Translations under genes and position numbers: made by a program
NCBI GenBank assembly: GCA_024642045.1
Contig: JAHEBX010000001.1
Span: 17,590 to 81,589 of the forward strand
Direction: 5' to 3'
Source: Pseudorhodobacter sp.
Lineage (GTDB): Bacteria > Pseudomonadota > Alphaproteobacteria > Rhodobacterales > Rhodobacteraceae
DNA: 64,000 nt
Shown: positions 6,057 to 24,326 of the stretch, in pieces
Layout: each line of letters begins with the position of its first letter
How positions within the stretch are numbered: position 1 is the stretch's first letter
Notes under the pieces: model-generated
The model's input: only the letters and a program-made list of their open reading frames with translations
Database searches by the model: none
Told to the model about the DNA's origin: nothing

Positions 6057-6085
6057 TTGACAGATATGGAACGTTCCATTAGTTA
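6057..6085 (+). promoter_or_regulatory. Sigma70-type promoter of the afr operon
   Basis: TTGACA (6057-6062), 17 nt spacer, TAGTTA (6080-6085); 32 bp before the ATG at 6118. Confidence 0.65.
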
Positions 6086-6100
6086 TTTTGGAACGTTCCA
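6066..6100. promoter_or_regulatory. Tandem LacI-type operators
   Basis: Perfect palindromes ATGGAACGTTCCAT (6066-6079) and TGGAACGTTCCA (6089-6100), central CG, centres 22 bp apart. Confidence 0.8.
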
Positions 6101-6117
6101 TAAATTGTGAGGCTTGG

Positions 6118-7122
6118 ATGATTTGGGCGCTGATCGGGGCAAGCACGATTGCCAGCCAGTATATGGTGGATGCTTTGCGCGCCCAGCCCGCGGGCACTGT
6201 CCGCTGGATTATATCTGGCACTGCGGTGCGGGCGGCCGAGTTTGCCGCGGCGCATGACATTCCATATTCAGACACCCATCTGGCGGCGGCTCTGGATGAT
6301 CCGGCCGTTCAGGCCGTCTATATCTCTTCTACCAACGATCGGCACATGGATCAGGCTTTGGGCGCTATTGCTGCTGGCAAGCATGTGCTGTGCGAAAAGC
6401 CGCTTGCGCTGACCGCAAAGGATGCCGCGCAGATCGTTGCGGCGGCAGAGGCTGCCGGTGTGGTCTTTGCCACCAACCATCACCTGCGTTGTGCGGGCAG
6501 CCATCAGGCGGTGCGCGCGCTGATCCACGCAGGACGGATCGGGCGCGTGTTGTCGCTGCGAATTCATCACGCCGTGCATTTGCCGGAAAATCTGCAGGGC
6601 TGGCGGATCAATTCGGCGGCTTCGGGCGGTGGTGTCGTGCCTGATATCACCGTGCATGACGCAGATGTCGCGCGGTTTCTGTTGGGCGAAGACCCGCAGA
6701 GCGTGGTGGCACAAGTGACGAGTTCCGGTTTGGGGCAGGGGGTGGAAGATTCCGCCATGTCAGTCTGGGCCATGCCTTCGGGCGCGATGGTGATGAGCCA
6801 TGAAAGCTTTACTCACCCCTTTGCGGGCTCGGGGCTTGAGGTCCACGGCACAGAAGGCTCGATCTTTGCGCGCGGGGTGATGACGCAGCAGCCGGTGGGC
6901 GAGATTGAGATGGTCACTGCCAAGGGCCGCGAGGTGGTGCGCTTTGAGGCGCATAACCTCTATCAATTTGGCGTTGCGCGGTTTTGTGACGCGGTTGCGG
7001 GCCGCGGGGGCGTGGCGGCGAGCGGATGGGACGGCGTAAAATCCCTTGCGGTGGCCGAGGCCGTACGCCAGGCCGCAGCGACGGGTGCCCAAGTTTCCGT
7101 GGGGTATGGGGTGGCGCCATGA
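6118..7122 (+). CDS. afr: Gfo/Idh/MocA oxidoreductase, 1,5-anhydro-D-fructose reductase-like
   Basis: WALIGASTIA, VYISSTN, GKHVLCEKPLA, TNHHLR, LQGWR, DITVHDAD and EVHGTEGS match the recalled Sinorhizobium Afr sequence along its length. Confidence 0.78.
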   Translation: MIWALIGASTIASQYMVDALRAQPAGTVRWIISGTAVRAAEFAAAHDIPYSDTHLAAALDDPAVQAVYISSTNDRHMDQALGAIAAGKHVLCEKPLALTAKDAAQIVAAAEAAGVVFATNHHLRCAGSHQAVRALIHAGRIGRVLSLRIHHAVHLPENLQGWRINSAASGGGVVPDITVHDADVARFLLGEDPQSVVAQVTSSGLGQGVEDSAMSVWAMPSGAMVMSHESFTHPFAGSGLEVHGTEGSIFARGVMTQQPVGEIEMVTAKGREVVRFEAHNLYQFGVARFCDAVAGRGGVAASGWDGVKSLAVAEAVRQAAATGAQVSVGYGVAP

Positions 7123-8690
7123 GCAAGCTGGTATCCGCAGCCCAGGCCGTTGCCCACATCGAAGACGGCGCGGTTGTCACGGTGTCGTCCTCCTCGGCCT
7201 TGGGCTGCCCTGACCTTGTGCTGAAGGCCATTGGTGCGCGCTTTGACGACAGCGGACATCCGCGTGGATTGACCACAATCCATCCGATCGCTGCGGGGGA
7301 TATGTACGGTGTCAAAGGCGTGGATCACATTGCCAAAGACGGGCTGCTCACCCGGATTTTGGGCGGGTCTTATCCGTCGGGGCCGTCGTCGAAACCGATG
7401 CCCGCGATCTGGCAGATGATCGTTGAAGACCGCGTTGCGGCCTATAACGTACCCTCGGGGATCTTGTTCGACATGCACCGCGAGGCGGCAGCGCGTCGCC
7501 CCGGTGTTTTGACGCGGGTGGGTTTGAAAACCTTTGCCGACCCGATCCGCCAAGGCTGCGCGATGAACGATCTCGCGGCCAAAACCCCGATTGTGAACCG
7601 CGTCGAGTTTCTGGGCGAGACCTGGCTGCACTATCCCAACATCATCCCGACGGTTGCGATCTTGCGCGCAACCACGGCCGATGAGCATGGCAATCTGACC
7701 TACGAGCACGAAGGCGCCTATCTGGGTGGGCTGGAACAGGCGATCTGCGTGCGAAATCACGGCGGTCTGGTGATTGCGCAGGTTTCCCGCGTCACCAAGC
7801 GCGGGTCGCTGCGCCCGCATGATGTGCGCGTGCCGGGCCATCTGGTTGACCTGATCGTGGTTGACGCGGATCAAAAACAGACCTGTGAGACGCCCTATGA
7901 TCCGGCAATTTCCGGCCAGATCATGCGGCCGTGGGAAAGCTTTTCCTTGGCCGAACACGGGGTTGAAAAAATCATCGCGCGGCGCGCGGCGATGGAGTTG
8001 CGGCCCGGCATGACAGCCAATCTCGGCTTTGGTATTTCAGCGATGGTTCCAAGGATCCTGCTGGAAGAAGGTCATCCAGAGGCGGTGACTTGGGCGATTG
8101 AGCAGGGCGCTGTCGGCGGAATGCCTCTGACGGGCTTTGCCTTTGGGTGTGCGTCGAACGCTGATGCCTATGTGCCCTCGCCGCAGCAGTTCATCTATTT
8201 TCAGGGCGCAGGGTTTGACGTGTCGTTCCTGTCGTTCCTTGAGGTGGATATCGAGGGCAACGTCAATGTCTCCAAGCTTGGCAAAAAGCCTTACCTGACA
8301 GCGGGTTGCGGTGGGTTTGTCGACATCACCTCACATGCCAGAAAAATCGTCTTCTCAGGCTGGTTCGAAGCGGGGGCGGAGATTGAGTTGACCGACAAGG
8401 GTCTGCGCGTTGTCACTCCTGGCAAGTTCACCAAGATGGTCGAAGCGGTCGAACATGTCACCTTTTCGGGCGAGCGCGCCCGCGAGCAGGGGCAGGATGT
8501 GATCTATATCACCGAGCGCTGCGTGATGCGGATGGGCGAGCGGGGCATGGTGGCGACCGAAATCATGCCCGGAATTGACCCCGAGCGCGACATCGTTGCG
8601 GCAAGTCAGGGCCGCGTGTCGATTGCGCCGGATGCGATCACTTTGCCACTGTCGCTGCTCCGTGATGAGCCGATGGGGTGGGGAAGATGA
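7119..8690 (+). CDS. Family I acyl-CoA:acetate/3-ketoacid CoA transferase (YdiF/Pct-like, fused)
   Basis: GLKTFADP, ADEHGNL, NLGFGIS, catalytic E in IEQGAVGG, GCGGFVDI and YITERCV motifs. Confidence 0.88.
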   Translation: MSKLVSAAQAVAHIEDGAVVTVSSSSALGCPDLVLKAIGARFDDSGHPRGLTTIHPIAAGDMYGVKGVDHIAKDGLLTRILGGSYPSGPSSKPMPAIWQMIVEDRVAAYNVPSGILFDMHREAAARRPGVLTRVGLKTFADPIRQGCAMNDLAAKTPIVNRVEFLGETWLHYPNIIPTVAILRATTADEHGNLTYEHEGAYLGGLEQAICVRNHGGLVIAQVSRVTKRGSLRPHDVRVPGHLVDLIVVDADQKQTCETPYDPAISGQIMRPWESFSLAEHGVEKIIARRAAMELRPGMTANLGFGISAMVPRILLEEGHPEAVTWAIEQGAVGGMPLTGFAFGCASNADAYVPSPQQFIYFQGAGFDVSFLSFLEVDIEGNVNVSKLGKKPYLTAGCGGFVDITSHARKIVFSGWFEAGAEIELTDKGLRVVTPGKFTKMVEAVEHVTFSGERAREQGQDVIYITERCVMRMGERGMVATEIMPGIDPERDIVAASQGRVSIAPDAITLPLSLLRDEPMGWGR

Positions 8691-9454
8691 GCATGCTTCA
8701 CCTAATTCTCCGGGGTCAGATTGCCGAGCTGCGGCTGGATAACCCGCAAAAGATGAACGCCTTTACTGTCGAGATGCTGACCCAGCTGGCCGGTCATCTG
8801 GAGGCGATAGAGCGCGACGCCGGAATTCGCGCGGTGATGATTACCGCCGAAGGCAACCGCGCCTTTTGCACCGGCGCTGACATCAGCGCCTGGGCCAACC
8901 TGTCAGCGGTGGAATTTGCCCGTCATTGGGTGCGCGATGGCCACCGCATTTTCGACCGGCTTGCGCGGTTGTCCAAGCCGACCATTGCGGTGCTGAACGG
9001 TCATGCCTTTGGCGGCGGGCTGGAACTTGCTGCGGCCTGCGATCTGCGGGTAATGGCGCCCGACGCCAGTCTCGCCCTCCCCGAGGCTGGCGTCGGGATC
9101 GTGCCGGGCTGGTCGGGAACCCAGCGTTTGCTTCGGCTGATGCCCGAAGCCGTGATCAAAGAAATGGCCCTGTTTGGGCATCGCATTACGGCCGCGCGCG
9201 CCTTGGCGATGGGCTTTGTCGCGGCGGTTGACCCAGACCCGCGCGCGGCAGCTAGCGCGTTGCTGGACCGTGCCATCGGGCTGTCGCCACGCGCGGTTGA
9301 GATCACCAAATCGATGATCCACGCCAGCGCGGGCGAAGACCGCGGCGCTATGGTCGAAGCTTTGGGCAGCGCTGCGATTGCTGCAAGCGACGACCGCGAG
9401 GAAGGTGTCAGCGCCTTTCTGCAAAAGCGCAAACCTGAGTTTAAGGGGAACTGA
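8687..9454 (+). CDS. Enoyl-CoA hydratase/isomerase family protein
   Basis: AFCTGADI, GGGLELAAACD and LPEAGVGIVPG motifs (both catalytic Glu present); ATGA overlap. Confidence 0.9.
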   Translation: MSMLHLILRGQIAELRLDNPQKMNAFTVEMLTQLAGHLEAIERDAGIRAVMITAEGNRAFCTGADISAWANLSAVEFARHWVRDGHRIFDRLARLSKPTIAVLNGHAFGGGLELAAACDLRVMAPDASLALPEAGVGIVPGWSGTQRLLRLMPEAVIKEMALFGHRITAARALAMGFVAAVDPDPRAAASALLDRAIGLSPRAVEITKSMIHASAGEDRGAMVEALGSAAIAASDDREEGVSAFLQKRKPEFKGN

Positions 9455-9455: not shown

Positions 9456-10988
9456 ATGCTTGACCTTACGGTGATCACTGAAGCGACGATTGCGGTGCCA
9501 AATAAACCCTATCGCGCCAGACACTTCATTGCGGGGGCCTATTGCAACAGCGCCGACGGGGCGGTTTCTGAACGCATTTCGCCGTCGCATGGGGTCGTCG
9601 CCAGTATCTCTGCCAAAGGCGGCGCAGCAGAGGCCGAGGCGGCTATTGCAGCGGCAAGAACTGCCTTTGACGATGGCCGTTGGAGCGATGTGCCGGCGCG
9701 TGCACGGGCGAAAGTTCTGAACAAGGTGGCCGATCTGATCGAGGCGAATGTAGAGCGGCTTGCTTTGATCGAAACCATGGAAACGGGCAAGCCGATCAGC
9801 CAGTCGCGCGGGGAATGTGGCGGCGCGGCGGACCTTTGGCGTTACGCAGCCTCGCTTGCCCGCACGTCGCACGGCGACAGCCATAACACCTTGGGCAAGG
9901 ACATTCTGGCGGTCGTGACCAAAGAGCCGATCGGGGTTGTTTCCATCATCACGCCTTGGAATTTCCCGTTCTGGATCCTGAGCCAAAAGCTGCCCTTTGC
10001 GCTGGCCGCTGGTTGTACCTGCGTTGTGAAGCCTTCGGAAATCACCCCATCAACCACCGCGATGCTGGCCGAATTTCTGATCGAGGCGGGGCTGCCCAAA
10101 GGCGTGTGCAACATTGTTCTGGGCGCTGGAAACCCCATCGGCAGCCTGATGAGCACGCATAGCGACGTGGATATGATCACCTTTACCGGCTCGACAGGCG
10201 TGGGCAAGATCATCAGCCAAGCGGCGGCGAATACGCTCAAAAAGGTTGCGTTGGAGTTGGGCGGAAAAAACCCGCAGGTGGTGTTTTCCGATGCCGATCT
10301 GGATCAAGCCGCAGACGCGATTGCCTTTGGCGTCTATTTCAACGTCGGGCAGTGCTGCAATTCCTCGAGCCGCATTATCGTGCATGAGGATATCGCCAAG
10401 GATCTGGTCGAGCGGGTGGTGGCCCTCACGCGGCATGTGCGTTTCGGCAACCCTCTCCATCCTGACACGCAGGTGGGCGCGATTGTAACGCCGGAACATA
10501 ACGGCTCGATTGACGCCCATGTGCGCGCGGCGGTGCGCGCGGGGGCGACGCTGCGGTTGGGCGGCGCGCCGATGGTGGTCGACGGCCTTGGCCAGCAGTT
10601 CTATCAGCCGACCATTCTGACGGGGGTCACCGCAGAGATGCCGATCGCCAGCAGCGAAGTCTTCGGTCCCGTGCTGACCGTGCTGACCTTTCGCACAATG
10701 GACGAGGCGATCGCGCTGACCAATGGCACCACCTACGGCCTTTCCGCCGGGGTCTGGAGCGAAAACGTTCACACCTGTCTTGAATTCAGCCGACGCGCCC
10801 AAGCGGGCACGGTCTGGACCAACACCTGGATGGACGGGTTTCCCGAACTCGCCTTTGGCGGGGTTAAGCAATCCGGCCAGGGACGCGAGATCGGCTCTTA
10901 CGGTTACGACGAATTCCTTGAGGTGAAATCGCACGTCCTGCGCATCGGTCGCACGCGCGCGCCTTGGGTGAAGACCCCGTCGGCCTGA
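9456..10988 (+). CDS. NAD-dependent aldehyde dehydrogenase, sorbosone dehydrogenase-like
   Basis: [25 protein letters not shown] catalytic Cys and EVFGP motifs; subfamily assigned from recalled similarity. Confidence 0.88.
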
Positions 10989-11032: not shown

Positions 11033-12283
11033 ATGCGTATTATTGGAAAGAAGATGTCGGTGGTTCTGGCGCTTATGGCCAGCACCTCTATGGCGCAGGC
11101 CGAGGATGTCGAGGTGCTGCACTGGTGGACCTCGGGTGGTGAGGCGGCGGCGCTGGGTGTGCTGAAAGACACGCTGAAAAGCCAAGGCATCGGCTGGATC
11201 GACATGCCGGTTTCGGGCGGCGGTGGCGAGGCGGCAATGACCACGCTGCGCGCGCGTGTCACCGCGGGCAACCCACCGACCGCCGTGCAGATGCTCGGCT
11301 TTGACATTCAGGACTGGGCCGCCGAGGGGGCGCTGGGCAATCTGGATGACGTGGCCGCCAAGGAAGGATGGGACGCCGTCGTGCCCCCCGCGCTTCAGGC
11401 CTTTTCCAAGTATGACGGCCACTGGATCGCGGCCCCTGTGAACGTGCATTCGACCAACTGGGTCTGGGCCAACAAGGCGGTTCTTGATGGTTTGGGGATC
11501 GCTCAACCAACCACCTGGGACGAGTTTGTTGCCGCGATGCAAAAGGTCAAGGACTCGGGTAAAACGGCCTTGGCCCATGGTGGCCAGCCTTGGCAAGAGG
11601 CCACCGTGTTTGACGGCGTGGTGTTGTCGGTCGGCGGCACCGAGTTCTACAAAAAGGCCTTTGTCGATCTGGACCCAGAGGCTTTGGGTGGCGCGCAGAT
11701 GGTCGAGGCGTTCAAGCGGATGGAAACGCTGCATTCTTTCACTGACGCCAACTTCTCGGGTCGCGACTGGAACCTGGCCTCGGCTATGGTGATCAATGGC
11801 GATGCGGCCTTCCAGATCATGGGTGACTGGGCCAAGGGCGAGTTCCTGAAGGCGGGCAAAGTGCCGGGCACCGATTTCCTGTGCTTCCGCGTGCCGGGAA
11901 CGGACGGCGATGTCAGCTTCAACTCTGACCAGTTTGCGATGTTCAAGGTCGACTCTGAGGCAGCCAAGGCCGCACAGGCGCAAATGGCCGCAGATATTAT
12001 GTCGCCCACCTTCCAATCCGCGTTTAACGTGGTCAAGGGCTCGGTCCCGGCGCGCACCGATGTGCCAAATACCGCCTTTGACGATTGCGGCAAGAAGGGC
12101 ATGGCTGACCTTGCTGCGGCCTCTGCCTCGGGCAATCTGGTGGGGTCAATGGCGCATGGCCACGCCAACCGTGCTGCGGTCAAGAACGCGATCTATGACG
12201 TTGTGACGGCTGCCTTCAACGGCGAATACGACGCGGAAACGGCAGCCAAAAATCTGGCTGATGCCGTGGCGGCCGCCAAGTAA
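11033..12283 (+). CDS. CUT1 ABC sugar-binding protein 1 (GtsA-like)
   Basis: Signal peptide; [21 protein letters not shown] and [11 protein letters not shown] motifs; RBS GGAGG. Confidence 0.88.
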
Positions 12284-12289: not shown

Positions 12290-12318
12290 TTGGGAAAGCG
12301 GCCGGCCCGCTTTCCCAA
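12290..12318 (+). terminator. Perfect 12 bp stem-loop after the binding-protein gene (mRNA-stabilising or attenuating)
   Basis: TTGGGAAAGCGG-CCGGC-CCGCTTTCCCAA. Confidence 0.6.
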
Positions 12319-12387
12319 ACCTGCCGCCCCCAAGCGGGCTTTTCAATTGCAAAGACATCTGTGCCGCGCACAGAAACAGGAGGAACC

Positions 12388-13284
12388 ATGGCATTTTCGA
12401 CCTCTGGCGTGGATATCCGTACCCGCCTTCAGGATTTGATCCCAAAATTGGTTCTGTCTCCGTCCATCGCGGCGATGATGATCTTCGTCTATGGCTTCAT
12501 CGTGTTTACCGTCTATCTCAGCTTTACCAATTCCAAGATGCTGCCCAGCTATGATCTCATAGGTTTTGAGAATTACGCCAAGCTTTGGGCGCTGTCGGCC
12601 TGGTGGACGGCGGTGAGCAACCTTGCGATCTTTGCCTCGCTTTATATCGTGATCTGCACCGCAATCGGACTGACACTCGCCATCCTGCTGGACCAGAAAA
12701 TTCGCGGTGAAGGGGTCTTGCGCCCGATCTACCTTTACCCGATGGCGTTGTCGTTCATCGTGACCGGCACAGCGTGGAAGTGGTTTCTCGACCCCGGAAT
12801 TGGTCTTGAAAATACCATGCACCTTTGGGGCTGGCAGAGTTTCCATTTTGGCTGGATCAAAGATCGTAACATGGCGATCTATACCATCGTCATCGCTGCG
12901 GTCTGGCAAACCTCGGGTTTTGTGATGGCGATGTTTCTGGCCGGGTTGCGCGGGATTGATAACGAAATCCTCAGGGCTGCCCAGATCGACGGGGCCTCTA
13001 ACTGGCAGCTGTATCGCCGGATTGTGATCCCGATGCTGCGGCCGGCCTTCATGTCGGCTTTTGTGATCCTCAGCCATCTGGCGGTGAAATCCTATGACCT
13101 TGTCGTGGCACTGACGGGTGGGGGGCCGGGGCGGGCAACCGAGCTGCCTGCGACCTTCATGTATTCCTATACTTTCACGCGAAATTCGATGGGTATTGGC
13201 GCTTCGAGTGCGGTGATCATGTTGATGACCATCGCGGCGATCATGACCCCTTACCTCTATGCTGAATTGAAGGAGAAGCCCTGA
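12388..13284 (+). CDS. Carbohydrate ABC transporter permease (GtsB-like)
   Basis: PKLVLSPS, multiple TM segments, EAA loop RAAQIDGA; RBS AGGAGG. Confidence 0.9.
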   Translation: MAFSTSGVDIRTRLQDLIPKLVLSPSIAAMMIFVYGFIVFTVYLSFTNSKMLPSYDLIGFENYAKLWALSAWWTAVSNLAIFASLYIVICTAIGLTLAILLDQKIRGEGVLRPIYLYPMALSFIVTGTAWKWFLDPGIGLENTMHLWGWQSFHFGWIKDRNMAIYTIVIAAVWQTSGFVMAMFLAGLRGIDNEILRAAQIDGASNWQLYRRIVIPMLRPAFMSAFVILSHLAVKSYDLVVALTGGGPGRATELPATFMYSYTFTRNSMGIGASSAVIMLMTIAAIMTPYLYAELKEKP

Positions 13285-14162
13285 TGTCTGGAGCAACCCA
13301 AGATACGGCGGTGCGGACCTCTGGCTTCTCCCGGACCCTGATTTACCTTGTGCTGTTGCTGTTTGCGCTGTTTTTCCTGCTGCCGTTCTTTGTGATGCTG
13401 GTGAATTCGCTGAAACCTTTGTCCGAGATTACCGGCGGCAATATGATGGCATTGCCGCAGCATTGGACGATCGAGCCGTGGCTTTCAGCGTGGTCCACAG
13501 CACAGATCGGCGTAGAGCCGACGGGGTTGAAACCCTATTTCGTGAACTCGATCATGATGGTGGTGCCGGCCGTCGCAATCTCGACCGTGTTTGGCGCGCT
13601 GAACGGATATGTGCTGACCAAATGGCGCTTTCGTGGCGATAGCATCCTTTTCGGCCTGATGCTCTTTTCCTGCTTTATCCCGTTTCAGATCGTGCTGATC
13701 CCGATGGCGATGGTCTTGGGCAAAATCGGCCTGGCCGGATCGGTGCAAGGCCTGGTGCTGGTCCATGTGGTCTATGGCATTGGGTTCACCACGCTCTACT
13801 ACCGCAACTATTACGCCTCGTTCCCGACCGAGCTGGTTCGCGCCGCGATGATCGACGGGGCAGGGTTCTTTCGCATCTTTTGGCGGATCATGCTGCCCGT
13901 TTCTGGCCCGATCACTGTGGTCTCGGTGATCTGGCAGTTCACCAATATCTGGAATGACTTTCTGTTCGGGGCCTCATTCGGCGGGCAAAGCCAGCCGATG
14001 ACCGTGGCCCTGAACAACCTCGTGCAATCCTCGACGGGCGTTAAGGAATACAACGTCCATTTCGCAGGTGCGATCCTTGCCGCAGTGCCAACCCTCTTTG
14101 TTTACATCGTTGCAGGCCGCTACTTTGTGCGTGGTCTGATGGCAGGAAGCGTCAAAGGATAA
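13284..14162 (+). CDS. Carbohydrate ABC transporter permease (GtsC-like)
   Basis: ELVRAAMIDGAG EAA loop, WQFTNIWNDFLF, GLMAGSVKG. Confidence 0.9.
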   Translation: MSGATQDTAVRTSGFSRTLIYLVLLLFALFFLLPFFVMLVNSLKPLSEITGGNMMALPQHWTIEPWLSAWSTAQIGVEPTGLKPYFVNSIMMVVPAVAISTVFGALNGYVLTKWRFRGDSILFGLMLFSCFIPFQIVLIPMAMVLGKIGLAGSVQGLVLVHVVYGIGFTTLYYRNYYASFPTELVRAAMIDGAGFFRIFWRIMLPVSGPITVVSVIWQFTNIWNDFLFGASFGGQSQPMTVALNNLVQSSTGVKEYNVHFAGAILAAVPTLFVYIVAGRYFVRGLMAGSVKG

Positions 14163-16695: not shown

Positions 16696-18161
16696 CCCCG
16701 GATGTGATCATCATCGGGTCGGGCATGGGCGGGGCCACGCTGGCCGCAGCGCTTGCTCCTACGGGGCGGAGGATTCTGATCCTCGAGCGGGGCGCGCCCT
16801 TGCAACCCTCTGCTGCCGACCGCGACGCAAACGCAATCTTTGGGCGCGGGCAGTTTCGACCGAATGAGACTTGGTACGACGGCGAGGGGCGCGGTTTCAA
16901 TCCGGGCAACTATTATAACGTCGGCGGCAATTCGAAATTCTTTGGTGCGGTGTTTCTGCGCTATCGTTCTGAAGATTTCAGTCCGATCCAGCACCTTGAG
17001 GGGCGCACCCCCGGCTGGCCGATCAGCTATGATGATCTGGAGCCCCATTATCAGCGCGCCGAGACGATGTATCAGATCCGCGGCCAGTTGGGCCAAGACC
17101 CGAGCGAGCCTGCGCACTCGGGCCATTATCCCTATCCACCCGTTCCCGATGAACCCGCGATCGCTGATCTGCGCGCCAGATTGCAACGGCTGGGGCTGCA
17201 CCCCGCCTCATTGCCGCTTGGTGTGGATTTGGAAAAGTGGCTTGCAGGTGGGCAGACGACTTGGGACGCCTATCCCAACACGACCCAAGGCAAGATGGAT
17301 GCCGAAACCATCGGCATCGCCCAGGCGCTTCAGCACGCGAATGTGACGCTGCGCACGGGGCAGGCGGTGCGACGGCTGCTTGCTGACGCCTCGGGTCGCA
17401 TCAGTGGGGTCGAGCTTGAGGGCAGCGGCGAGGTCTTGCAGGCGCCCATAGTGGTGCTAGCCGCGGGTGCGGTGCAATCGGCCGTGCTCTTGCTGCGCTC
17501 GGGGCTTGCGAATTCATCCGATCAGGTCGGCCGCAATTTCATGAACCACAACACCTCGGCTGTGCTGGCGTTTCATCCGTTGCGGCGCAATCGGTCGGTT
17601 TATCAAAAGACGCTGATGGTCAATGATTTCTACCTCGGCGGCGGGCCGAAAAACGCGCCTTTGGGCAACATCCAGATGCTGGGTAAGATCACAGGCCCGA
17701 TTTTGACTGCGAATGCCCGCTTGCCTCGGGTTCTGGCGAACTTCATCTCGCACAGGACATTGGACCTTTATGCGATGTCCGAAGACCTTCCCGACCCGGA
17801 AAGCCGCATCATGCTGCAAGGCGAGCGGATCGTGATGGATTGGCGGCAAAAGAACTGGGCGGCGCATCTGGTGCTTGTGGCTAAGCTCAAGGCACTGCTG
17901 CGGCGGGCGGGCTATCCGGTTGTGCTTTCAAAGCCCTTTGACAGCCGCACGCCCTCGCATCAATGCGGCACCGCGCGGATGGGGCGCGACGGCACCGGCA
18001 GCGTTGTTGATATCTTTTGCCGCAGTCACGACCACCCCAATCTGTTTATCACCGATGCCTCGGTGTTGCCGACCTCGGCCGCCGTCAACCCGGCGCTGAC
18101 CATTGCCGCGCTGGCCTTGCGCGCGGCCGATCACATCATCGCTACCGATTTTGCTGCCTGA
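16692..18161 (+). CDS. GMC family FAD oxidoreductase 1 (sugar dehydrogenase/oxidase-like)
   Basis: IIGSGMGG, VGGNSKFFG, SHQCGTARMG and VNPALTI (His/Asn pair); no signal peptide. Confidence 0.85.
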   Translation: MTPDVIIIGSGMGGATLAAALAPTGRRILILERGAPLQPSAADRDANAIFGRGQFRPNETWYDGEGRGFNPGNYYNVGGNSKFFGAVFLRYRSEDFSPIQHLEGRTPGWPISYDDLEPHYQRAETMYQIRGQLGQDPSEPAHSGHYPYPPVPDEPAIADLRARLQRLGLHPASLPLGVDLEKWLAGGQTTWDAYPNTTQGKMDAETIGIAQALQHANVTLRTGQAVRRLLADASGRISGVELEGSGEVLQAPIVVLAAGAVQSAVLLLRSGLANSSDQVGRNFMNHNTSAVLAFHPLRRNRSVYQKTLMVNDFYLGGGPKNAPLGNIQMLGKITGPILTANARLPRVLANFISHRTLDLYAMSEDLPDPESRIMLQGERIVMDWRQKNWAAHLVLVAKLKALLRRAGYPVVLSKPFDSRTPSHQCGTARMGRDGTGSVVDIFCRSHDHPNLFITDASVLPTSAAVNPALTIAALALRAADHIIATDFAA

Positions 18162-18177: not shown

Positions 18178-19764
18178 GTGCCCGAAGGATTTGATTTCAT
18201 TGTGATCGGCGGCGGATCGGCAGGCTCGGTCGTGGCGGCACGGCTGACCGAGAACCCTTTGGTCAGCGTGTTGCTGATTGAGGCAGGCGGGCGCGACCGC
18301 CATCCGTTTTATCACCTGCCTGCGGGCTTTGCCAAAATGACCAAAGGCATCGGGTCGTGGGGCTGGGAAACCACGCCGCAAAAGCACATGCAAAACAAGG
18401 TGTTCCGCTATACCCAAGCCAAGGTGATCGGCGGCGGGTCTGCGATCAATGCGCAGATCTATACCCGTGGCAACGCCCAGGATTATGACGAGTGGCGGCA
18501 GATGGGCTGCACCGGTTGGGGCTATGACGACGTGCTGCCCTATTTCCGCAAAGCCGAGGATAACGACACCTTTGACAATCGCTTTCACGGCAAGGGCGGC
18601 CCGCTGGGAGTCAGCCAGCCGATAGCACCCCTGCCGATCTGCGAGGCTTATTTCGAGGCCGCGGCCCAGATCGGCATTCCGCGCAACATGGATATCAACG
18701 GCGAGACGCAGGACGGCGTTTGCTATTACCAACTGACCCAACGCCACGCGCGCCGCTCTTCGGCGGCGATGGCCTATCTTGCGCCGAACCGTGGCAGGCC
18801 GAACCTGACGGTGAAAACCGGAGTCGAAGTCCGCCGCCTGATTGTGACTGCGGGCCGTGCCACTGGGGTGGAACTGATGGACGGCCGTCAGTTGATGGCG
18901 GCGCAAGAGGTCGTGCTGTCCAGCGGTGCTATCGGCACGCCGCGCCTGTTGCAGCTTTCGGGGATTGGACCCGCCGATCATCTCCAGGCCCTCGGGATCA
19001 AGGTCGTTTTCGATCAGCCGCAGGTCGGTGAAAATCTGCAAGACCATCTGGACCTTTACTGCATCGCCGAGCTTTCTGGGCCCTACAGTTATGACCGCTT
19101 TGCCAAGCCGCATCTGGCGGCACTGGCGGGTCTGCAATATCTTTTGCAACGCAAGGGGCCTGTGGCCTCGTCGCTGTTTGAAACCGGTGGCTTTTGGTAT
19201 GCCGACCCCGATGCGCGCTCGCCGGACATTCAGTTTCATCTTGGCCTTGGCACAGGGATCGAGCATGGCGTGGTTGCCATGCCGCAAGGGGGCATCACAT
19301 TGAACTCGTGCTATTTGCGCCCGCGTTCACGCGGGTCGGTGCGGCTGCAATCGGCGGATCCTGCGCAGATGCCGTTGATCGATCCGAATTATCTCTCTGA
19401 TCCCGTTGACCGCGAGATGTCGATCCGTGGCCTGAAACTGACCCAGCAAATCCTGTCGCAACCTGCGCTGAAAGACTTTGTCCTTGCCCAACGGTTGCCC
19501 GGCCCCGAGGTGAAAACCGAGGCGGATTACTTCAACTTTATCAGCCAACATTCGAAAACTTCGCACCATTGCGCCGGCACTTGCCGCATGGGCGCTGATG
19601 CGGCGGCAGTGGTTGATCTGCAGTTGCGCTTTAACGGCATTGCGGGGCTGCGCATTGTCGATAATTCAATTATGCCAAAGGTGATTTCGTCCAATACCAA
19701 CGCGGCAGCGATCATGATCGGCGAAAAGGCTGCCGATATGATCAAAGCCCAGCATGGAGCCTGA
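18178..19764 (+). CDS. GMC family FAD oxidoreductase 2 (choline/sorbose dehydrogenase-like)
   Basis: IGGGSAG, GGGSAINAQIYTRG, VGENLQDH, HHCAGTCRMG and SNTNA motifs; GTG start with GGAG RBS. Confidence 0.88.
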   Translation: MPEGFDFIVIGGGSAGSVVAARLTENPLVSVLLIEAGGRDRHPFYHLPAGFAKMTKGIGSWGWETTPQKHMQNKVFRYTQAKVIGGGSAINAQIYTRGNAQDYDEWRQMGCTGWGYDDVLPYFRKAEDNDTFDNRFHGKGGPLGVSQPIAPLPICEAYFEAAAQIGIPRNMDINGETQDGVCYYQLTQRHARRSSAAMAYLAPNRGRPNLTVKTGVEVRRLIVTAGRATGVELMDGRQLMAAQEVVLSSGAIGTPRLLQLSGIGPADHLQALGIKVVFDQPQVGENLQDHLDLYCIAELSGPYSYDRFAKPHLAALAGLQYLLQRKGPVASSLFETGGFWYADPDARSPDIQFHLGLGTGIEHGVVAMPQGGITLNSCYLRPRSRGSVRLQSADPAQMPLIDPNYLSDPVDREMSIRGLKLTQQILSQPALKDFVLAQRLPGPEVKTEADYFNFISQHSKTSHHCAGTCRMGADAAAVVDLQLRFNGIAGLRIVDNSIMPKVISSNTNAAAIMIGEKAADMIKAQHGA

Positions 19765-19765
19765 T

Positions 19766-20086
19766 ATGATCCGTCACATCGTTCTGATTAAATTTTCCGA
19801 AGGAGTCAGCGAGGCAAAAATCGCCGACCTTTTCACTGAATTGAAGCAGATTGAGAGCAAACTTGCCGGTCTGCGTGCCATAACGGCAGGGCGGAGCGAA
19901 AGCCCCGAGCAGATGGAGCGCGGCTATATGCACGGCTTTGTTGCTGATTTCGACAGCTGGGCGGATTTGCAGGCCTATCAGGACCACCCAGACCATCAGC
20001 TTTTGGGCAGCAAGCTGGTGGCCCATGCTGTGGGGGGCAAGGATGGGATCTTGTGCTTTGACCTTGAGGTGAACGAGACACGCTAA
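19766..20086 (+). CDS. Dabb family (stress-responsive alpha/beta barrel) protein
   Basis: MIRHIVLIKF, GYMHGFVADF and AYQDHPDH motifs; start 1 bp after the GMC2 stop. Confidence 0.8.
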   Translation: MIRHIVLIKFSEGVSEAKIADLFTELKQIESKLAGLRAITAGRSESPEQMERGYMHGFVADFDSWADLQAYQDHPDHQLLGSKLVAHAVGGKDGILCFDLEVNETR

Positions 20087-20191
20087 CAGGCCAGAAAGTA
20101 TTTCGTTACTCAGGTTGTTGTTTCACCCAAGAACAAAAAGCGTCACAGTCAGTCTGAGAACCTGAGCGACGTGACCGGAGGCCGACGATTC

Positions 20192-21208
20192 ATGACTGCT
20201 GATCGCAGACCGACCATCATAGATGTCGCGCATAAGGCGGGGGTTTCAAAATCGACAGTCAGCCTCGTGCTGCAAAACAGTGCATCGGTGCGCGAAGAAA
20301 CCCGTGTCTTGGTGCGGCAAGCTATGGCGGATCTGAGCTATGTCTATAACCGCGCAGCGGCCAATATGCGGATGTCGAATGCAGGCCTGATTGGTCTTGT
20401 GATCAATGACTTGCGCAACCCCTTCTTTACTGAATTTGCAACATCCTTGCAGATGGCGCTTTCGGCGCGCGGCTATGCCGTCGTGATCGCCAATACCGAT
20501 GAAGACGCCGGTTTGCAGGCGCGCACCATTGGCACAATGATTGAACATGGCGTGTCGGCCTTTATCATCTCGCCTGCCTACGGCGAAGTCGTGCCCGCCT
20601 TTGACGCGATGTTGCGCGCGGGCGTTCCGACAATGCAGGTCCTGCGTAAGGTTGATGGCCGAACCGGGCAGTTTCCCTTTGCCGGGCCCAACTACCCAGA
20701 GGGCAGCACGCTTGCAACGCGGCATCTTTTGGCGCAGGGCGCACGGCGGATTGCCTTTGTCGGCGGGCTTGCGGGGCGCGCGGTAACTCAGGAACGCATG
20801 TCGGGGTATCTGGAGGTGCTGCGCGCCGAAGGGATAGAGCCGCTGGTTCTGTCTGGAAAATCCTCACGCGCCTTTGGCCGCGAGATGGCGCATCAGCTGG
20901 CGCAGCAACACCCCGACTGTGATGCGGCACTTTGCTTTAACGACCTGGTGGCGCTGGGCATGTTGGTTGGGTGTAACGAGCTGGGTCGCAAGGTTGGGCC
21001 AAATTTCAAGATCGTCGGCTTTGACGACATCGAAGACGCAGCGCAAGCCTTTCCAACACTCAGCTCGGTGCGCTGCGATGTGGCGGGGTTTGGTCGACAG
21101 ATCGCAGCGACCGTCTTGGACTGGCTGGAAAACGGCGTGGTGCCCGCCGCCGAAAGCCGATCTGTCGTGCAATTGATCGAGCGGCAGTCCAGCACCACTG
21201 GGGCCTAG
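20192..21208 (+). CDS. LacI family transcriptional regulator
   Basis: PTIIDVAHKAGVSKSTVSLVL HTH, YVYNRAAANMR hinge, NPFF and VGFDDI motifs; RBS GGAGG. Confidence 0.93.
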   Translation: MTADRRPTIIDVAHKAGVSKSTVSLVLQNSASVREETRVLVRQAMADLSYVYNRAAANMRMSNAGLIGLVINDLRNPFFTEFATSLQMALSARGYAVVIANTDEDAGLQARTIGTMIEHGVSAFIISPAYGEVVPAFDAMLRAGVPTMQVLRKVDGRTGQFPFAGPNYPEGSTLATRHLLAQGARRIAFVGGLAGRAVTQERMSGYLEVLRAEGIEPLVLSGKSSRAFGREMAHQLAQQHPDCDAALCFNDLVALGMLVGCNELGRKVGPNFKIVGFDDIEDAAQAFPTLSSVRCDVAGFGRQIAATVLDWLENGVVPAAESRSVVQLIERQSSTTGA

Positions 21209-22146
21209 ACCACCATGCCCGACAGCCGCGCGCCCACCTCTTTCGGCACGCGGGCCCCATAATGCTGCAGCACTTCAGCCGCGACGCGCTGCCCAAGCCC
21301 TATCGCCTGTTCGGCACCCAATCCGCGCATCCGTCCGGCAAGGTAGCCTGCATTGAACGCATCGCCCGCACCCGTGGTGTCGCGGATGTTTGCAACGGGC
21401 GGGGTAGGGACCGCGCCTTGGGTCTCGGGCGTGCGAAAATGCACCGCTGCGCTGCCATTCTTGACGACGATCTCTCGCACCCCCGCCCGCGCGAGCCGTG
21501 ACACCGTCGCCGCTGGGTCGGCATCCAGAAAATGCGCGGCCTCGTCGTCGAAACTGGGTAGGGCGATATCGGTCAAGATGAGCATCTGCTGCACCGTATC
21601 GCGGATCTCTTGCGTCGAGCCCCACAGACGCGGGCGGATGTTGGGGTCAAATGCAATCACGGACCCCGCCGCCCGTGCTGACTGCAAAACCGCAAACAAC
21701 CTGCTGCGCGCCTCTGGTGCAAGAATGGCCAGCGTGATCCCCGAAAGATGGATCAAACCCGCCCCGTCGATGGCCGCCGAAAGCGCTGCTGCGTCATTGG
21801 CTAGATGACGCGCCGCAGACTGGCTGCGCCAATAGTGAAAGCTGCGCTCGACCCCATCCAGTTCAATCAGATAAAGCCCCATTGTCCGCGTGCTGTCGCG
21901 CATCAGGCCCGCGGGGTTCAGCCCATCCGCCGCCAGCTCTGCGGCAAAGGCATCGGAAATGGCATCGCACCCCAAGCCGCTGACAAAGCCCAGATCGGCG
22001 CGCGGGCCCAAAAGCTTGGCCATATGCCAGACGGTGTTAAAGGTATCGCCTGCAAAGTTCCGCCGAAAGAGCCCATCGCCCACCGGCGCAAGTTCCACCA
22101 TAGCCTCGCCGATCGCGACCATTTTGGTATTCGCAATCGTGATCAT
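21205..22146 (-). CDS. kdgK: PfkB sugar kinase, 2-keto-3-deoxygluconate kinase-like
   Basis: IGEAMVEL, AGDTFNT, ERSFHYWRSQSAAR, FDPNIRPRLW and DTTGAGDAFNAG motifs typical of KdgK. Confidence 0.75.
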   Translation of the reverse strand: MITIANTKMVAIGEAMVELAPVGDGLFRRNFAGDTFNTVWHMAKLLGPRADLGFVSGLGCDAISDAFAAELAADGLNPAGLMRDSTRTMGLYLIELDGVERSFHYWRSQSAARHLANDAAALSAAIDGAGLIHLSGITLAILAPEARSRLFAVLQSARAAGSVIAFDPNIRPRLWGSTQEIRDTVQQMLILTDIALPSFDDEAAHFLDADPAATVSRLARAGVREIVVKNGSAAVHFRTPETQGAVPTPPVANIRDTTGAGDAFNAGYLAGRMRGLGAEQAIGLGQRVAAEVLQHYGARVPKEVGARLSGMVV

Positions 22147-24224
22147 ACTGCAGAATCCGTCTGTTGTGATTTATAGATGCACCCCATCAGCCAGTCGGGC
22201 CAATCACGCTCGAAAAACGACTTGTCGGCTGCCAAGGTTCGGTTCGGGCGCACCGAAACCTCGATCTTGCCGCTGCGCAGGCGAACCACAAGTTGCTCGG
22301 CCTTGTCCTGCACCTGTTCGTTGCGAAAGCGGAACTCTGTCAAGGCGCCGGATGCTGCCTCGGGCAGGCTCTCGCCAGCGGGATCACAGATCGCCCTTGC
22401 CCCACGACTGCCTCCACCTTTGGCAATATAGGCATCAAGCGCAGCCAGCACGGCCTCTGACGCCAAAGCCATGTGCTGGCGCTGGATCAGCCGCGCACCT
22501 TCGCCCGCGCGATCTGGCCGCAAGCCCTGGCGGCGGATCCGGTCGTTCAGCGCGCGCGCCTCATCCAGCGCCGCCGCGACAGAGGCGGGCGTGCACATGA
22601 TGCCGGCATGTTCACTCATGCGGGCCTGAACGGTATCGCGCAACGTCTGCGCATCCAGCGGGCTATCGGCGCGCAACACTGATTTAAGGTCGGTCACCGC
22701 GCGCAGGTCAGCTATCTGTTCCGGCTTGCCCATCACGGCGCGGCCACTGGCGGCGATATGCTCGGCCACGCGGGTGCCAAAGACCTGGCCCGCATTCAGC
22801 GCAGCACCTCCGGGTCGCGTCACCCCATGAGTGCCCGCAGCCTCGCCAATCGCATAGCAGCCCGCGAGCGTCGTTTGCCCCCAGATATCAACCGAAATAC
22901 CACCATTCATATGCTGGTGATTCACCGCGAATTCCAAAGGCGCCGTGGCAATATCCACCTTGTAGCGGCGGTAAAGTTCAATCGCCAAAGGGTTCATATG
23001 GCGAAGGCGCTCAATCGGTATCGGTTGCACCGCGCCCGCATGTTTCAGATAGCTGCGCACATCATCGTCCAGCCGATCAAGGCTGAACGCCTGATCCCCC
23101 GGCACCGCGACAGGGTTGCGGTTGAAATCCATATACACGCGCCGCCCGGCCTCGCCTTCACGCCAGATTGCCAGATCAATCAGGCTTGATCCGAAATCCA
23201 GCATCCGCGTCGCGTGGAATGGCCATTGATAGCCCTTGCGAAAGATGTTCGAGGCCAACTCTTGCGTCGTGCGATAGTAGGCGGCCAGAAAGTTATGCTC
23301 GCCCCCTTCGGCATCGACCGAATAGATATAGGGGATGGTCTGCACATAGGTGCCCGACAGGTTCCACGGAAAGCCCTCGCGCCGCGTGCCGATACCGAAC
23401 TGGCTCTCGGTCAGATTGATCAGATCCAGCCCCGCCTCCAGCGCCAGACCCAGACTGCCAAAACAACCGTTCGGAAAGACCGAGTCGCGGTAGAGCTCGC
23501 CCGGCCCACCCGCGGCCAGCACCAGAACCGGCGCATGAAACAGCGCCAGACCCAAGGGATTGGCCTCATGGCGGTCTTTCGGGCGAATGGTCAGAACCCC
23601 TTGGGTCTGACGGTCATCGCCCTCGGTGGTGATAATCTTGACGACCGTGGTTTGATTGAAAAACGGAATGCCAAGACGCAGGGCCTCTGCCGCCAAGACC
23701 TTGACCATCAAGCGCGAGGTGCGCGGCCCGCAACTGGTCGCGCGGCCGACCTCGTCATGGTCGGTCTGATAGCGTAAGGTGCCGCCCAGCCTGTCCTGAG
23801 GCAGGGGCAAGCCCAGATATTGCAGCGACGCCATCGCCCGCGCAGAGCCCACTGCCTCGACATAGGCGGTGTCCTCATCCATCGCGCCGCCAGCGCGGAT
23901 CGCACGTGCCATCGCCTGATAGTTGTCGCCTTGGTCTGCAGTGTTGGCCGTGTGCAACGTCTGCTTGTCCGACCCCGAACAAGCCGAGGTTCCCCCCCAT
24001 GCGCTTTGTGAGATGATCGCGACCTTCACCCCGCGCCGATGCAGCTCGACCGCCGCGCGCAAGCCTGCGGCCCCGCTGCCGACAACCAGACACTCGGCAT
24101 TATAGGTGGGCAATGTGTGGCCATCCAAAACGGTCCGGCTGTCTGGTCCGGGCTCTGCCCCAAGGCGGGGCATGTCAATATCGGTCAGTGAATCCAGAAC
24201 CTCTTGCGAAACTTCCGTTTTCAA
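22143..24224 (-). CDS. FAD-binding protein of the succinate dehydrogenase/fumarate reductase/NadB flavoprotein superfamily, unknown substrate
   Basis: VVGSGAAG, HQHMNGG, YAIGEAAGTHGVTRPGG motifs; TTG start with AAGGAG RBS; ATGA overlap with kdgK. Confidence 0.82.
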   Translation of the reverse strand: MKTEVSQEVLDSLTDIDMPRLGAEPGPDSRTVLDGHTLPTYNAECLVVGSGAAGLRAAVELHRRGVKVAIISQSAWGGTSACSGSDKQTLHTANTADQGDNYQAMARAIRAGGAMDEDTAYVEAVGSARAMASLQYLGLPLPQDRLGGTLRYQTDHDEVGRATSCGPRTSRLMVKVLAAEALRLGIPFFNQTTVVKIITTEGDDRQTQGVLTIRPKDRHEANPLGLALFHAPVLVLAAGGPGELYRDSVFPNGCFGSLGLALEAGLDLINLTESQFGIGTRREGFPWNLSGTYVQTIPYIYSVDAEGGEHNFLAAYYRTTQELASNIFRKGYQWPFHATRMLDFGSSLIDLAIWREGEAGRRVYMDFNRNPVAVPGDQAFSLDRLDDDVRSYLKHAGAVQPIPIERLRHMNPLAIELYRRYKVDIATAPLEFAVNHQHMNGGISVDIWGQTTLAGCYAIGEAAGTHGVTRPGGAALNAGQVFGTRVAEHIAASGRAVMGKPEQIADLRAVTDLKSVLRADSPLDAQTLRDTVQARMSEHAGIMCTPASVAAALDEARALNDRIRRQGLRPDRAGEGARLIQRQHMALASEAVLAALDAYIAKGGGSRGARAICDPAGESLPEAASGALTEFRFRNEQVQDKAEQLVVRLRSGKIEVSVRPNRTLAADKSFFERDWPDWLMGCIYKSQQTDSAV

Positions 24225-24282
24225 CGTGCACTCCTTGGGATTGAGTTCGGTTTTGTCATCGTTTTGGTGGAATCCAGTCTTA

Positions 24283-24326
24283 TGGAACGTTCCAATTGCT
24301 ATAGACGCGATAACACATCAGGTCAA
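24283..24326 (-). promoter_or_regulatory. Sigma70-type promoter plus third LacI-type operator for the flavoprotein-kdgK operon
   Basis: Minus strand TTGACC (24326-24321), 17 nt, TATAGC (24303-24298), then TGGAACGTTCCA (24294-24283). Confidence 0.75.

Follow-up and report, generated by a model that had tools for sequence, protein, structure and literature searches.

A candidate CoA-dependent route for aerobic 1,5-anhydro-hexose catabolism encoded by the afr locus of a Pseudorhodobacter sp.

Aerobic and anaerobic bacterial ways of breaking down 1,5-anhydro-sugars have been described. In the aerobic one, known from Sinorhizobium, 1,5-anhydro-D-fructose is reduced to 1,5-anhydro-D-mannitol by 1,5-anhydro-D-fructose reductase (AFR), and a 2025 review still gives a continuation in which an unidentified P450-like enzyme hydroxylates anhydromannitol at C-1 to yield mannose (PMC12441222), in line with the oxygenation to mannose named in the first-pass annotation of the sequence considered here. 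The conversion of anhydromannitol to mannose was reported by Kühn et al. 2006, as summarised in the same review, according to which no aerobic anhydroglucitol-degrading enzyme is known (PMC12441222). In the anaerobic “anhydroglycolysis” of E. coli and gut bacteria, the sugars enter through the phosphotransferase system (PTS), and the glycyl-radical isomerases YbiW/PflD act on 1,5-anhydroglucitol 6-phosphate and 1,5-anhydromannitol 6-phosphate (AG6P/AM6P) (PMC12441222). Radical C–O cleavage of these 6-phosphates leads to 1-deoxyfructose-6-phosphate and works only under strict anoxia. Here, we describe a locus at positions 6057–24326 of a 64,000-nucleotide stretch (the window) of contig JAHEBX010000001.1 from a Pseudorhodobacter sp. 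(Rhodobacteraceae). Its gene content and its relatives in other genomes make it probable, though far from certain, that the locus is a LacI-repressed regulon for aerobic 1,5-anhydro-hexose catabolism by a coenzyme A (CoA)-dependent route to 2-keto-3-deoxy-D-gluconate (KDG). The substrates would probably be 1,5-anhydro-D-fructose, 1,5-anhydro-D-glucitol, and 1,5-anhydro-D-mannitol. Anhydroglycolysis and this route would have 1,5-anhydroglucitol and 1,5-anhydromannitol as common substrates, and both would have to open a cyclic ether, but the route predicted here avoids phosphorylated ring intermediates and relies on flavin dehydrogenases.

According to the proposed route, the sugar would be imported by a glucose-type ABC system, and anhydroglucitol would be oxidized to anhydrofructose by GMC1, one of two flavoenzymes of the glucose–methanol–choline (GMC) family. 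Reduction of anhydrofructose to anhydromannitol by AFR and NADPH, the known chemistry of AFR orthologues, would be followed by oxidation of the C6 hydroxymethyl group to a carboxylate by GMC2 and an aldehyde dehydrogenase (ALDH), yielding 2,6-anhydro-D-mannonate. A YdiF-type CoA transferase (CoAT) could then form the thioester, and a crotonase of the enoyl-CoA hydratase (ECH) type with two glutamates would remove water across C5-H/C4-OH to give a 4,5-unsaturated enol-ether uronate, the CoA probably being handed by the transferase to the next substrate molecule, as in the CaiB/CaiD system with carnitine. Hydration of the enol ether at C5 should produce a hemiketal that opens to KDG; this step would be carried out by a GH88 enzyme in other phyla and by something else here, the leading candidate being a flavoprotein that we call FAD2. 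Finally, a PfkB kinase would convert KDG to 2-keto-3-deoxy-6-phosphogluconate (KDPG), to be cleaved by the KDPG aldolase (Eda) of the genome. After loss of the C4-OH and formation of the C5 ketone, only C2 and C3 would remain chiral, so that, with the chain read from its acid end, the manno configuration would give the D-erythro product, KDG, and the gluco configuration its L-threo isomer, which would explain the usefulness of a manno-specific reductase. These outcomes parallel those of alginate-derived 4-deoxy-L-erythro-5-hexoseulose uronate (DEH) and pectin-derived 4-deoxy-L-threo-5-hexosulose uronate (DKI).

The gene afr (6118–7122, plus strand) encodes a protein of the GFO/IDH/MocA family. 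In PDB searches, it matches S. morelense AFR 2GLX (E 2.4e-92; 50% identity over 322 residues) and S. meliloti AFR 4KOA (E 1.7e-90), while the next family, glucose–fructose oxidoreductase, follows at 3.3e-25. The HMMER alignment keeps GASTIA and the equivalents of Ser33/Arg38 and Lys94/Asp176/His180 (CEKP, DITVHDAD, S..R); after Dambe et al. 2006, we take the first two elements to be of the NADPH type and the last three residues to be catalytic. The product is thus predicted to be an orthologue of NADPH-type 1,5-anhydro-D-fructose reductase (EC 1.1.1.292). In a search seeded with 2GLX, which was swamped by a generic GKHVLCEK pattern and still recovered distant informative clusters, an S. meliloti gene with the annotation 1,5-anhydro-D-fructose reductase was found to be 86.5% identical to the purified S. 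morelense enzyme. It is the first enzyme gene of an operon with the order LacI-AFR-CoAT-ECH-ALDH-SBP-perm-perm-ATPase-GMC1-SDR-GMC2-glycerate kinase and with a divergent DUF993 gene, where SBP stands for a substrate-binding protein, perm for a permease, and SDR for a short-chain dehydrogenase/reductase. This afr gene is presumably SMc04400 (after Kühn et al. 2006), and its neighbours are numbered SMc04390–SMc04401 by gene order; the names of SMc04390–SMc04392 in PMC12542648 agree with such numbering, SMc04390 being named L-sorbose dehydrogenase. Proteins of the window are 44–75% identical to those of the S. meliloti operon, SBP1 being closest (74%), and their order is alike. Judged by identity and order, the window locus is a positional orthologue of the SMc04390–SMc04401 operon, in a FAD2/PfkB variant where S. 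meliloti has the SDR/DUF993/glycerate-kinase one. The 1,5-anhydro-D-fructose pathway of S. morelense and S. meliloti and the route proposed here would therefore have in common an orthologous first enzyme and a syntenic whole operon, but they part after AFR: the published continuation is a C-1 oxygenation to mannose, while, judged by its gene content, the locus would oxidize anhydromannitol at C6, activate the acid with CoA, and, after an elimination, open the ring to KDG.

The locus comprises two convergent transcription units, a long one on the plus strand and a two-gene one on the minus strand. Pfam, NCBIfam, and PDB searches recovered every gene of the first-pass list, to which a second binding protein must be added. 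A sigma-70-like promoter can be read at 6057–6100 on the plus strand (TTGACA at 6057–6062, a 17-nt spacer, TAGTTA at 6080–6085), where two exact copies of the operator palindrome TGGAACGTTCCA are located at 6067–6078 and 6089–6100. The third exact copy lies upstream of FAD2-PfkB on the minus strand (24283–24294). These three copies, all at the two promoters, are the only ones in 64 kb, against 0.12 expected, and none of 100 shuffles gave three. Therefore, the co-regulation of the two units through one common operator, assumed in the initial reading of the locus, is well supported by the sequence. The three palindromes are probably bound by the product of the LacI-family repressor gene (20171–21208, plus strand). 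Of 252 fetched loci, 63 contain the operator 12-mer; in the relatives inspected, it is found at the 5′ ends of afr or CoAT and of FAD2 or a GFO392-FAD2 pair (GFO392 is described below), as well as between LacI and DUF993, the one odd site being inside afr in Aquiluna. Start/stop overlaps (ATGA or TGATG) join afr/CoAT, CoAT/ECH, perm1/perm2, ATPase/GMC1, GMC2/Dabb, and FAD2/PfkB.

Directly coupled to afr is the gene of a fused family-I CoA transferase of the YdiF type (7119–8690, plus strand; PF01144). Its fused alpha/beta CoA_trans domains match YdiF 2AHU with E 8.6e-95 over residues 4–520, and the Glu of its EQG motif, residue 328, is matched to YdiF Glu333 by position only. The protein is 82–91% identical across Rhodobacterales and Hyphomicrobiales and has more than 500 close relatives. 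The next gene (8687–9454, plus strand) encodes a crotonase-type hydratase/dehydratase, proposed to perform the 4,5-dehydration of the anhydro-uronyl-CoA. Its nearest solved structure is the 3-hydroxypropionyl-CoA dehydratase 5ZAI (E 3e-48), and alignment to it (GGGLELA, LPEAGVG; LELAAACD...LPEAGVG) bears out the earlier statement that both catalytic glutamates, Glu144/Glu164 of rat ECH, are kept. It is followed by an NAD(P)-dependent ALDH (9456–10988, plus strand) with the ELGGK Glu and the GQCC Cys, which would convert the C6 aldehyde to the anhydro-uronate.

No ligase, thiolase, acyl-CoA dehydrogenase, or 3-hydroxyacyl-CoA dehydrogenase is found in the clusters. The coupling of CoAT and crotonase without a ligase, thiolase, or acyl-CoA dehydrogenase therefore suggests a catalytic CoA cycle around a single dehydration. 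In this coupling and in the absence of the three accompanying enzymes, the pair resembles CaiB/CaiD of carnitine metabolism, in which a CoA transferase and a crotonase dehydrate a beta-hydroxy acid and CoA is recycled; CaiB is, however, a family III transferase, whereas the enzyme of the window belongs to family I and would act on a sugar acid. It could also be supposed that the CoA enzymes serve a small non-sugar fragment split off from the substrate, such as a 3-hydroxy acid (acrylate/3-hydroxypropionate- or carnitine-like), instead of the sugar acid. YdiF-type transferases take short acyl groups, which fits such a substrate, as does the nearest solved crotonase being a 3-hydroxypropionyl-CoA dehydratase. 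The lack of a thiolase, acyl-CoA dehydrogenase, and 3-hydroxyacyl-CoA dehydrogenase speaks against it, and so do the neighbours of the pair in other bacteria (see below); we consider a small-fragment substrate very unlikely.

About 250 loci were examined, with counts limited by 10-kb flanks. Of the 134 fetched loci that carry both CoAT and ECH, 126 also have ALDH, 113 have GMC1, and 100 have AFR, the latter directly upstream of CoAT in 96. The AFR-CoAT-ECH-ALDH-GMC1 core is kept across several phyla and has been found in Rhodobacterales, Hyphomicrobiales, Actinomycetota, Chloroflexota, Verrucomicrobiota, Deinococcota, and Rhodothermales. A reduced variant without CoAT and ECH was observed in a metagenome-assembled genome (MAG) of Hyphomicrobiales (L091; L numbers denote fetched loci), where the order LacI-Dabb-AFR-ALDH-permeases-ATPase-glycerate kinase is followed by a fusion of the large and medium subunits of a B12-type diol/glycerol dehydratase.

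This conservation bears on the published route. If the latter is true, AFR would supply anhydromannitol to an oxygenase that forms mannose, and the other operon genes would serve an unrelated co-regulated substrate or just the salvage of side products. Of the routes considered, only this one is supported by experiments (Kühn et al. 2006, cited in PMC12441222). Yet neither an oxygenase (P450 or other) nor a hexokinase nor a mannose-6-phosphate isomerase is encoded in the loci examined, afr overlaps CoAT in translational coupling and adjoins it in those 96 of 134 loci across several phyla, and the oxygenase has not been identified in twenty years (PMC12441222). On balance, we hold it to be quite unlikely that the operon works in this way.

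The hydration predicted for the CoA-dependent route to KDG finds its counterpart in other phyla. In 39 loci from Actinomycetota, Chloroflexota, Verrucomicrobiota, and Deinococcota that carry CoAT and ECH, a GH88 gene stands directly after ALDH; these clusters lack FAD2 and DUF993. The Arthrobacter gene at this position matches Pfam GH88, and a profile built from 19 cluster GH88 proteins aligns almost end to end with 1VD5, an unsaturated glucuronyl hydrolase from Bacillus (E 1.5e-63). Both catalytic Asp residues are invariant (D126/D181, equivalent to D88/D149 of 1VD5), the first of them being pinned by 2AHF, the entry of a D88N mutant. The reaction of GH88 enzymes on unsaturated uronates is a hydration of the C4=C5 enol ether, normally with release of the aglycone. 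There is no polysaccharide lyase in the GH88 clusters; therefore, the double bond should be made by other cluster genes, and the CoAT/crotonase pair is the natural candidate for its maker. Thus, the enol-ether intermediate opened by hydration, which the first-pass annotation had postulated, gains support from phyla other than that of the window. A GH88 enzyme as the immediate neighbour, with an unsaturated sugar acid as its substrate, is also hard to reconcile with a small non-sugar fragment.

In the unsaturated uronate pathway, lyase products are hydrated by GH88/GH105 and converted by KduI/KduD or DEH reductase to KDG, on which KdgK and Eda act. The route proposed here resembles it in the predicted C4=C5 enol-ether uronate, in the logic of hydration, and in the KDG/KDPG ends; the manno series would lead to KDG directly, as it does with alginate-derived DEH, and GH88, PfkB, and Eda are all found in orthologous clusters. 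The differences are that the double bond would be made intracellularly by CoAT and crotonase from a saturated monosaccharide acid rather than by a lyase, that the 1-deoxy substrate bears no aglycone, and that the window genome has no GH88.

GH88 normally frees an aglycone from unsaturated uronides, and its presence in the clusters would suit an oxidative–eliminative deglycosylation. Small glucosides or 1-substituted hexopyranosides would then be oxidized at C6, the uronide would be dehydrated through its CoA ester, hydration by GH88 or what replaces it would free the aglycone and 5-keto-4-deoxyuronate, and AFR (or SDR, or GFO392) would act in a KduD-like manner, reducing 2,5-diketo-3-deoxygluconate to KDG. 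PfkB and Eda fit this scheme just as well, AFR orthologues reportedly also reduce 2-keto aldoses (osones), and the SDR found in clusters of the S. meliloti type reaches 131 bits with the KduD model, under the cut-off of 339. At the same time, the clusters contain no KduI-type isomerase, the family of SBP1 binds monosaccharides (glucose/galactose), and anhydrofructose, via AFR, is the only experimentally known substrate link of the operon. In addition, a mini-module of AFR and GMC1 (see below) makes sense as a C2-epimerising pair on an anhydro-sugar. Deglycosylation is therefore regarded as an unlikely function of the locus.

As for the fate of KDG, the minus-strand unit encodes a PfkB kinase of the KdgK clade (21205–22146), proposed to phosphorylate KDG to KDPG, with PDB matches to 4E69 (E 3.6e-83) and Shigella KdgK 3LHX (E 6e-56). 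No other KdgK-like gene was found in the genome, while Eda and UxuA are encoded elsewhere; these searches covered a 3.49-Mb assembly of 265 contigs, probably a MAG. In Aquiluna, the cluster carries between GMC1 and GMC2 a PfkB gene, whose best families are KDG/KDGal kinases, a gene of an HbpS-like protein, and Eda (180 bits against TIGR01182, cut-off 156). Six more GH88-type loci contain Eda too, as do three Rhodobacter loci close to the window, where it comes just after LacI. The loci with PfkB and Eda inside the cluster are L294/L295 of Aquiluna; L289, L292, L293, L298, and L312; and L217/L244/L247 of Rhodobacter. Hence, KDG as the end product, as it was originally proposed, agrees with the occurrence of a KDG-type kinase and KDPG aldolase within clusters of Aquiluna, other actinobacteria, and closely related Rhodobacter.

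The same kinase would also fit an osone or Maillard-product route, the alternative already named in the first-pass annotation, in which imported glucosone or 3-deoxyglucosone is handled by AFR, reportedly active on osones, and by ALDH, which on 3-deoxyglucosone would give KDG. Such a route leaves CoAT, crotonase, GH88, and the two GMC enzymes, all of the conserved core, without a role, and it appears highly improbable.

In the window, the step assigned to GH88 would fall to another protein. FAD2 (22143–24224, minus strand) is a 693-aa FAD_binding_2 flavoprotein of the SdhA/FrdA fold. Each of the 80 fetched loci centred on FAD2 carries at least one core-cluster gene in its flank (GMC1 in 72, GMC2 in 71), often together with a levoglucosan-dehydrogenase-like GFO (54 loci) or PfkB (23 loci). 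Minimal units read LacI-CoAT-ECH-FAD2 (L231) and FAD2-PfkB-CoAT-ECH (L195), and a distant FAD2 homologue is part of a FAD2-Eda-PfkB operon (L338). By this linkage, FAD2 is a member of the system, and these three arrangements tie the CoA pair and FAD2 to KDG enzymes, again at variance with a small-fragment substrate.

FAD2, GH88, and SDR with DUF993 appear to replace one another across clusters. Those of the FAD2 type (80 loci) are devoid of GH88, DUF993, and the cluster-type SDR, and those of the SDR type (33 loci, with DUF993 where the flank reaches) are devoid of FAD2. Among 30 alphaproteobacterial genomes with the core, FAD2 is present in 17 and DUF993 in 20, and none lacks both; all 13 core genomes without FAD2 have DUF993, in 12 cases beside the cluster. 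GFO392 (best match 34% identical), DUF993, and the cluster-type SDR are all missing from the window genome. Because of this mutual replacement, FAD2 is the leading candidate for the hydration here and may supply the step from the unsaturated acid to KDG that GH88 supplies elsewhere. Its predicted structure (pLDDT 91.7) reveals in Foldseek only a generic FrdA/SdhA fold, with TM 0.67–0.80 at 15–21% identity. The capping-domain His (H-P-T) and Arg (RGEGG) are missing, the stretch reading QFGIGTRREG, while the C-terminal His (QHMNGG) and Arg (HGVTRPGG), which bind carboxylate in SdhA-type enzymes, are kept; the family has its own set of invariant polar residues, and no genes of Fe-S or anchor subunits adjoin FAD2 at the locus. 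On the active-site motifs, an ordinary fumarate reductase, succinate dehydrogenase, or L-aspartate oxidase has been rejected. A flavin-dependent 2-haloacrylate hydratase might serve as a precedent (PMC6100074).

The FAD2 clade is large, with 432 clusters at 50% identity (E <= 1e-30). Neighbours of distant members (L338–L349 and protein P0156) include, besides Eda-PfkB, SDR, a flavin reductase of the Old Yellow Enzyme (OYE) type, GH4, TRAP-transporter, and xylose-isomerase-like TIM barrels, and one distant relative is fused to an OYE domain. It suggests a general role of the family in the metabolism of keto- or unsaturated sugar acids. DUF993 replaces FAD2 in SDR-type clusters, often together with glycerate kinase, and in S. 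meliloti (L169:13485-14654) and also in Mesorhizobium it has the LacI operator region in common with the afr operon; a close homologue has the unannotated crystal structure 4DNH (E 2.6e-151). GFO392 is a 390-aa protein (L182:7826-8995; L244, L217, L247) nearest to levoglucosan dehydrogenase (LGDH; NF052479, 302 bits over the full length, cut-off 650), and its gene immediately precedes FAD2 in clusters of Rhizobium, Devosia, and some Rhodobacter. The LGDH pathway is another anhydro-sugar route, and the LGDH-like GFO occurs in cluster variants of Rhizobium and some Rhodobacter; however, ring opening in that route proceeds via a 3-keto intermediate and involves no CoA, and this GFO is missing from the window genome.

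The oxidation steps of the proposed route to KDG are assigned to two flavoenzymes. GMC1 (16692–18161, plus strand), a cytoplasmic protein of the FAD-glucose/fructose-dehydrogenase clade, is proposed to oxidize anhydroglucitol at C2 and matches 6A2U, 8HDD, and 7W2J with E about 1e-31 to 1e-24. GMC2 (18178–19764, plus strand), which is choline/L-sorbose-dehydrogenase-like, would convert the C6 primary alcohol to the aldehyde. Both have PF00732/PF05199 and the His...Asn pair (HQCGT...VNPALT in GMC1, HHCAGT...NTNAAA in GMC2), and neither reaches the cut-off of a curated NCBIfam equivalog. L-sorbose and L-sorbosone dehydrogenases, a GMC flavoenzyme and an ALDH, jointly produce 2-keto-L-gulonate. 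The pair of GMC2 and ALDH is similarly predicted to oxidize an exocyclic CH2OH beside the ring oxygen via the aldehyde to the acid; GMC2 differs in scoring 547 bits against PRK02106 (choline dehydrogenase), under the cut-off of 605. As to GMC1, Bradyrhizobium plasmids carry an AFR+GMC1+MFS module (MFS, major facilitator superfamily) without the rest of the cluster, and its GMC is 60% identical to GMC1. The module fits a C2 oxidation/reduction pair on an anhydro-sugar and is in line with GMC1 as the partner of AFR, the role given to it from the start.

Two side observations concern the GMC enzymes. In a Rhodothermales MAG (L092:7954-9797), genes of the electron-transfer flavoprotein alpha and beta are divergently located beside the afr cluster and may encode the electron acceptor of cytoplasmic GMC dehydrogenases. 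A 755-aa fusion of a gluconate 2-dehydrogenase subunit-3 domain and a GMC catalytic domain (L097:12681-14948 and other actinobacterial loci) separates CoAT from ECH in clusters of the Arthrobacter and Streptomyces types; a GMC2 orthologue is missing from some of these clusters.

The importer is encoded between ALDH and GMC1 on the plus strand. Its binding protein SBP1 (11033–12283) has a signal peptide and belongs to the glucose-binding family, with matches to 4R2B (E 3.5e-180), 8HQQ (E 9e-121), 5DVF from P. putida (E 2.4e-117), and 2B3B (E 3.8e-39); 8HQQ is the SAR11_0769–glucose complex (PMC11485210). This agrees with a hexose-type ABC importer, as first annotated. The importer further includes two CUT1 permeases (12361–13284 and 13284–14162, with a TGATG overlap) and a MalK/UgpC-type ABC ATPase (15583–16695). 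The additional binding protein SBP2 (14262–15515), a paralogue of SBP1, is found in only a subset of relatives, with about 80% identical orthologues in L017, L018, L027, L034, L043, L048, L056, and L064. G+C-rich hairpins are located directly 3′ of each binding-protein gene (12290–12320 and 15520–15550); as mRNA stabilisers or attenuators, they may raise the level of the binding protein relative to the membrane components.

The gene of a Dabb protein, a stress-responsive alpha/beta barrel (19754–20086, plus strand), is an optional member of the clusters in Rhodobacterales and some Hyphomicrobiales. It is not found in S. meliloti, nor in nearly all Rhizobium loci (L218 being one weak exception), and this makes Dabb unlikely as a universal enol-ether hydratase.

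Taken as a whole, the CoA route to KDG outlined in the first-pass annotation is supported by comparative genomics, namely by afr synteny, the GH88 linkage, the linkage to KDG kinase and aldolase, and the AFR+GMC1 module. A number of points weigh against it. Measured activity among these genes is confined to AFR orthologues, the formation of mannose has been reported (via PMC12441222), and the proposed route yields none. SMc04396, by gene order the counterpart of SBP1, is a putative sugar-transport gene reported to be induced by dextrin, anhydro-sugars not being among the inducers tried (PMC4960864). Since glucose or galactose is the ligand of the PDB relatives of SBP1, plain hexoses and small glycosides are possible substrates. 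The regiochemistry of GMC1 and GMC2 is unreadable from sequence, and their steps are proposals. With 250 bits against the KdgK model NF052444, the kinase stays under the NCBIfam cut-off of 400; KdgK is still its best family, and the protein is KdgK-like with unproven membership. GH88 was not found by tblastn with the Arthrobacter protein in the window genome or in alphaproteobacterial loci, and it is missing from 26 of the 30 core-bearing genomes of Alphaproteobacteria. The roles of FAD2 and Dabb are guesses; the pairing or fusion of distant FAD2 relatives with OYE-type reductases hints at redox chemistry rather than hydration, and a redox role of FAD2 is equally possible.

The flanks of the locus contain genes of other functions. 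Upstream (64–5689), a set of genes for L-threonate/tetronate catabolism (1203–5689) comes after a ribose-type ABC permease; in this set, LtnD (410 bits, cut-off 350), OtnK (523, cut-off 350), and OtnC (289, cut-off 250) exceed their thresholds, and an OtnI-like isomerase does not (246 against 325); a second HIBADH-type dehydrogenase of this set could be a D-erythronate dehydrogenase. A functional tie of the locus to these genes through a 3-keto route (1-deoxy-2,3-diulose to erythronate) has been rejected since the adjacency is kept in no other locus. The downstream EEP and PLD genes are unrelated to the finding. The EEP gene (24383–25126) was rejected as a partner of FAD2, the EEP gene beside FAD2 in Rhizobium being an unrelated Xth-like gene.

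In the literature covered, to which subscription journals do not belong, no paper was found that links anhydro-sugars with CoA enzymes or GH88, and nothing relevant on anhydromannonate, an aerobic anhydroglucitol pathway, the SMc0439x genes, or DUF993; within this coverage, the CoA-dependent route is undescribed. A much bolder generalization can be offered only tentatively, and we consider it doubtful: at least five phyla may degrade 1,5-anhydro-sugars aerobically, with CoAT and crotonase carrying out intracellularly, on a monosaccharide acid, the 4,5-elimination known from polysaccharide lyases and their polymers, and with the enol ether opened by one of three unrelated means, GH88, SDR with DUF993, or FAD2, the latter acting with its flavin either to hydrate the enol ether or to open the ether in another way.

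Since 2006, the reactions that follow AFR have stayed elusive, and a complete, gene-assigned aerobic route would close this gap. If the proposal is true, CoA-thioester-assisted beta-elimination would join the known chemistry of sugar acids, and functions would be found for DUF993, for the FAD_binding_2 clade of FAD2, and for a conserved cytoplasmic clade of GH88. There is also a medical side: in the neutropenia of glycogen storage disease (GSD) Ib and G6PC3 deficiency, a probiotic lowering intestinal 1,5-anhydroglucitol needs an enzyme that works aerobically (PMC12441222), and the operon is an obvious candidate source of such an enzyme. Finally, the route may account for the use of anhydrofructose, the product of alpha-1,4-glucan lyases, by Rhodobacterales and rhizobia associated with algae and plants.

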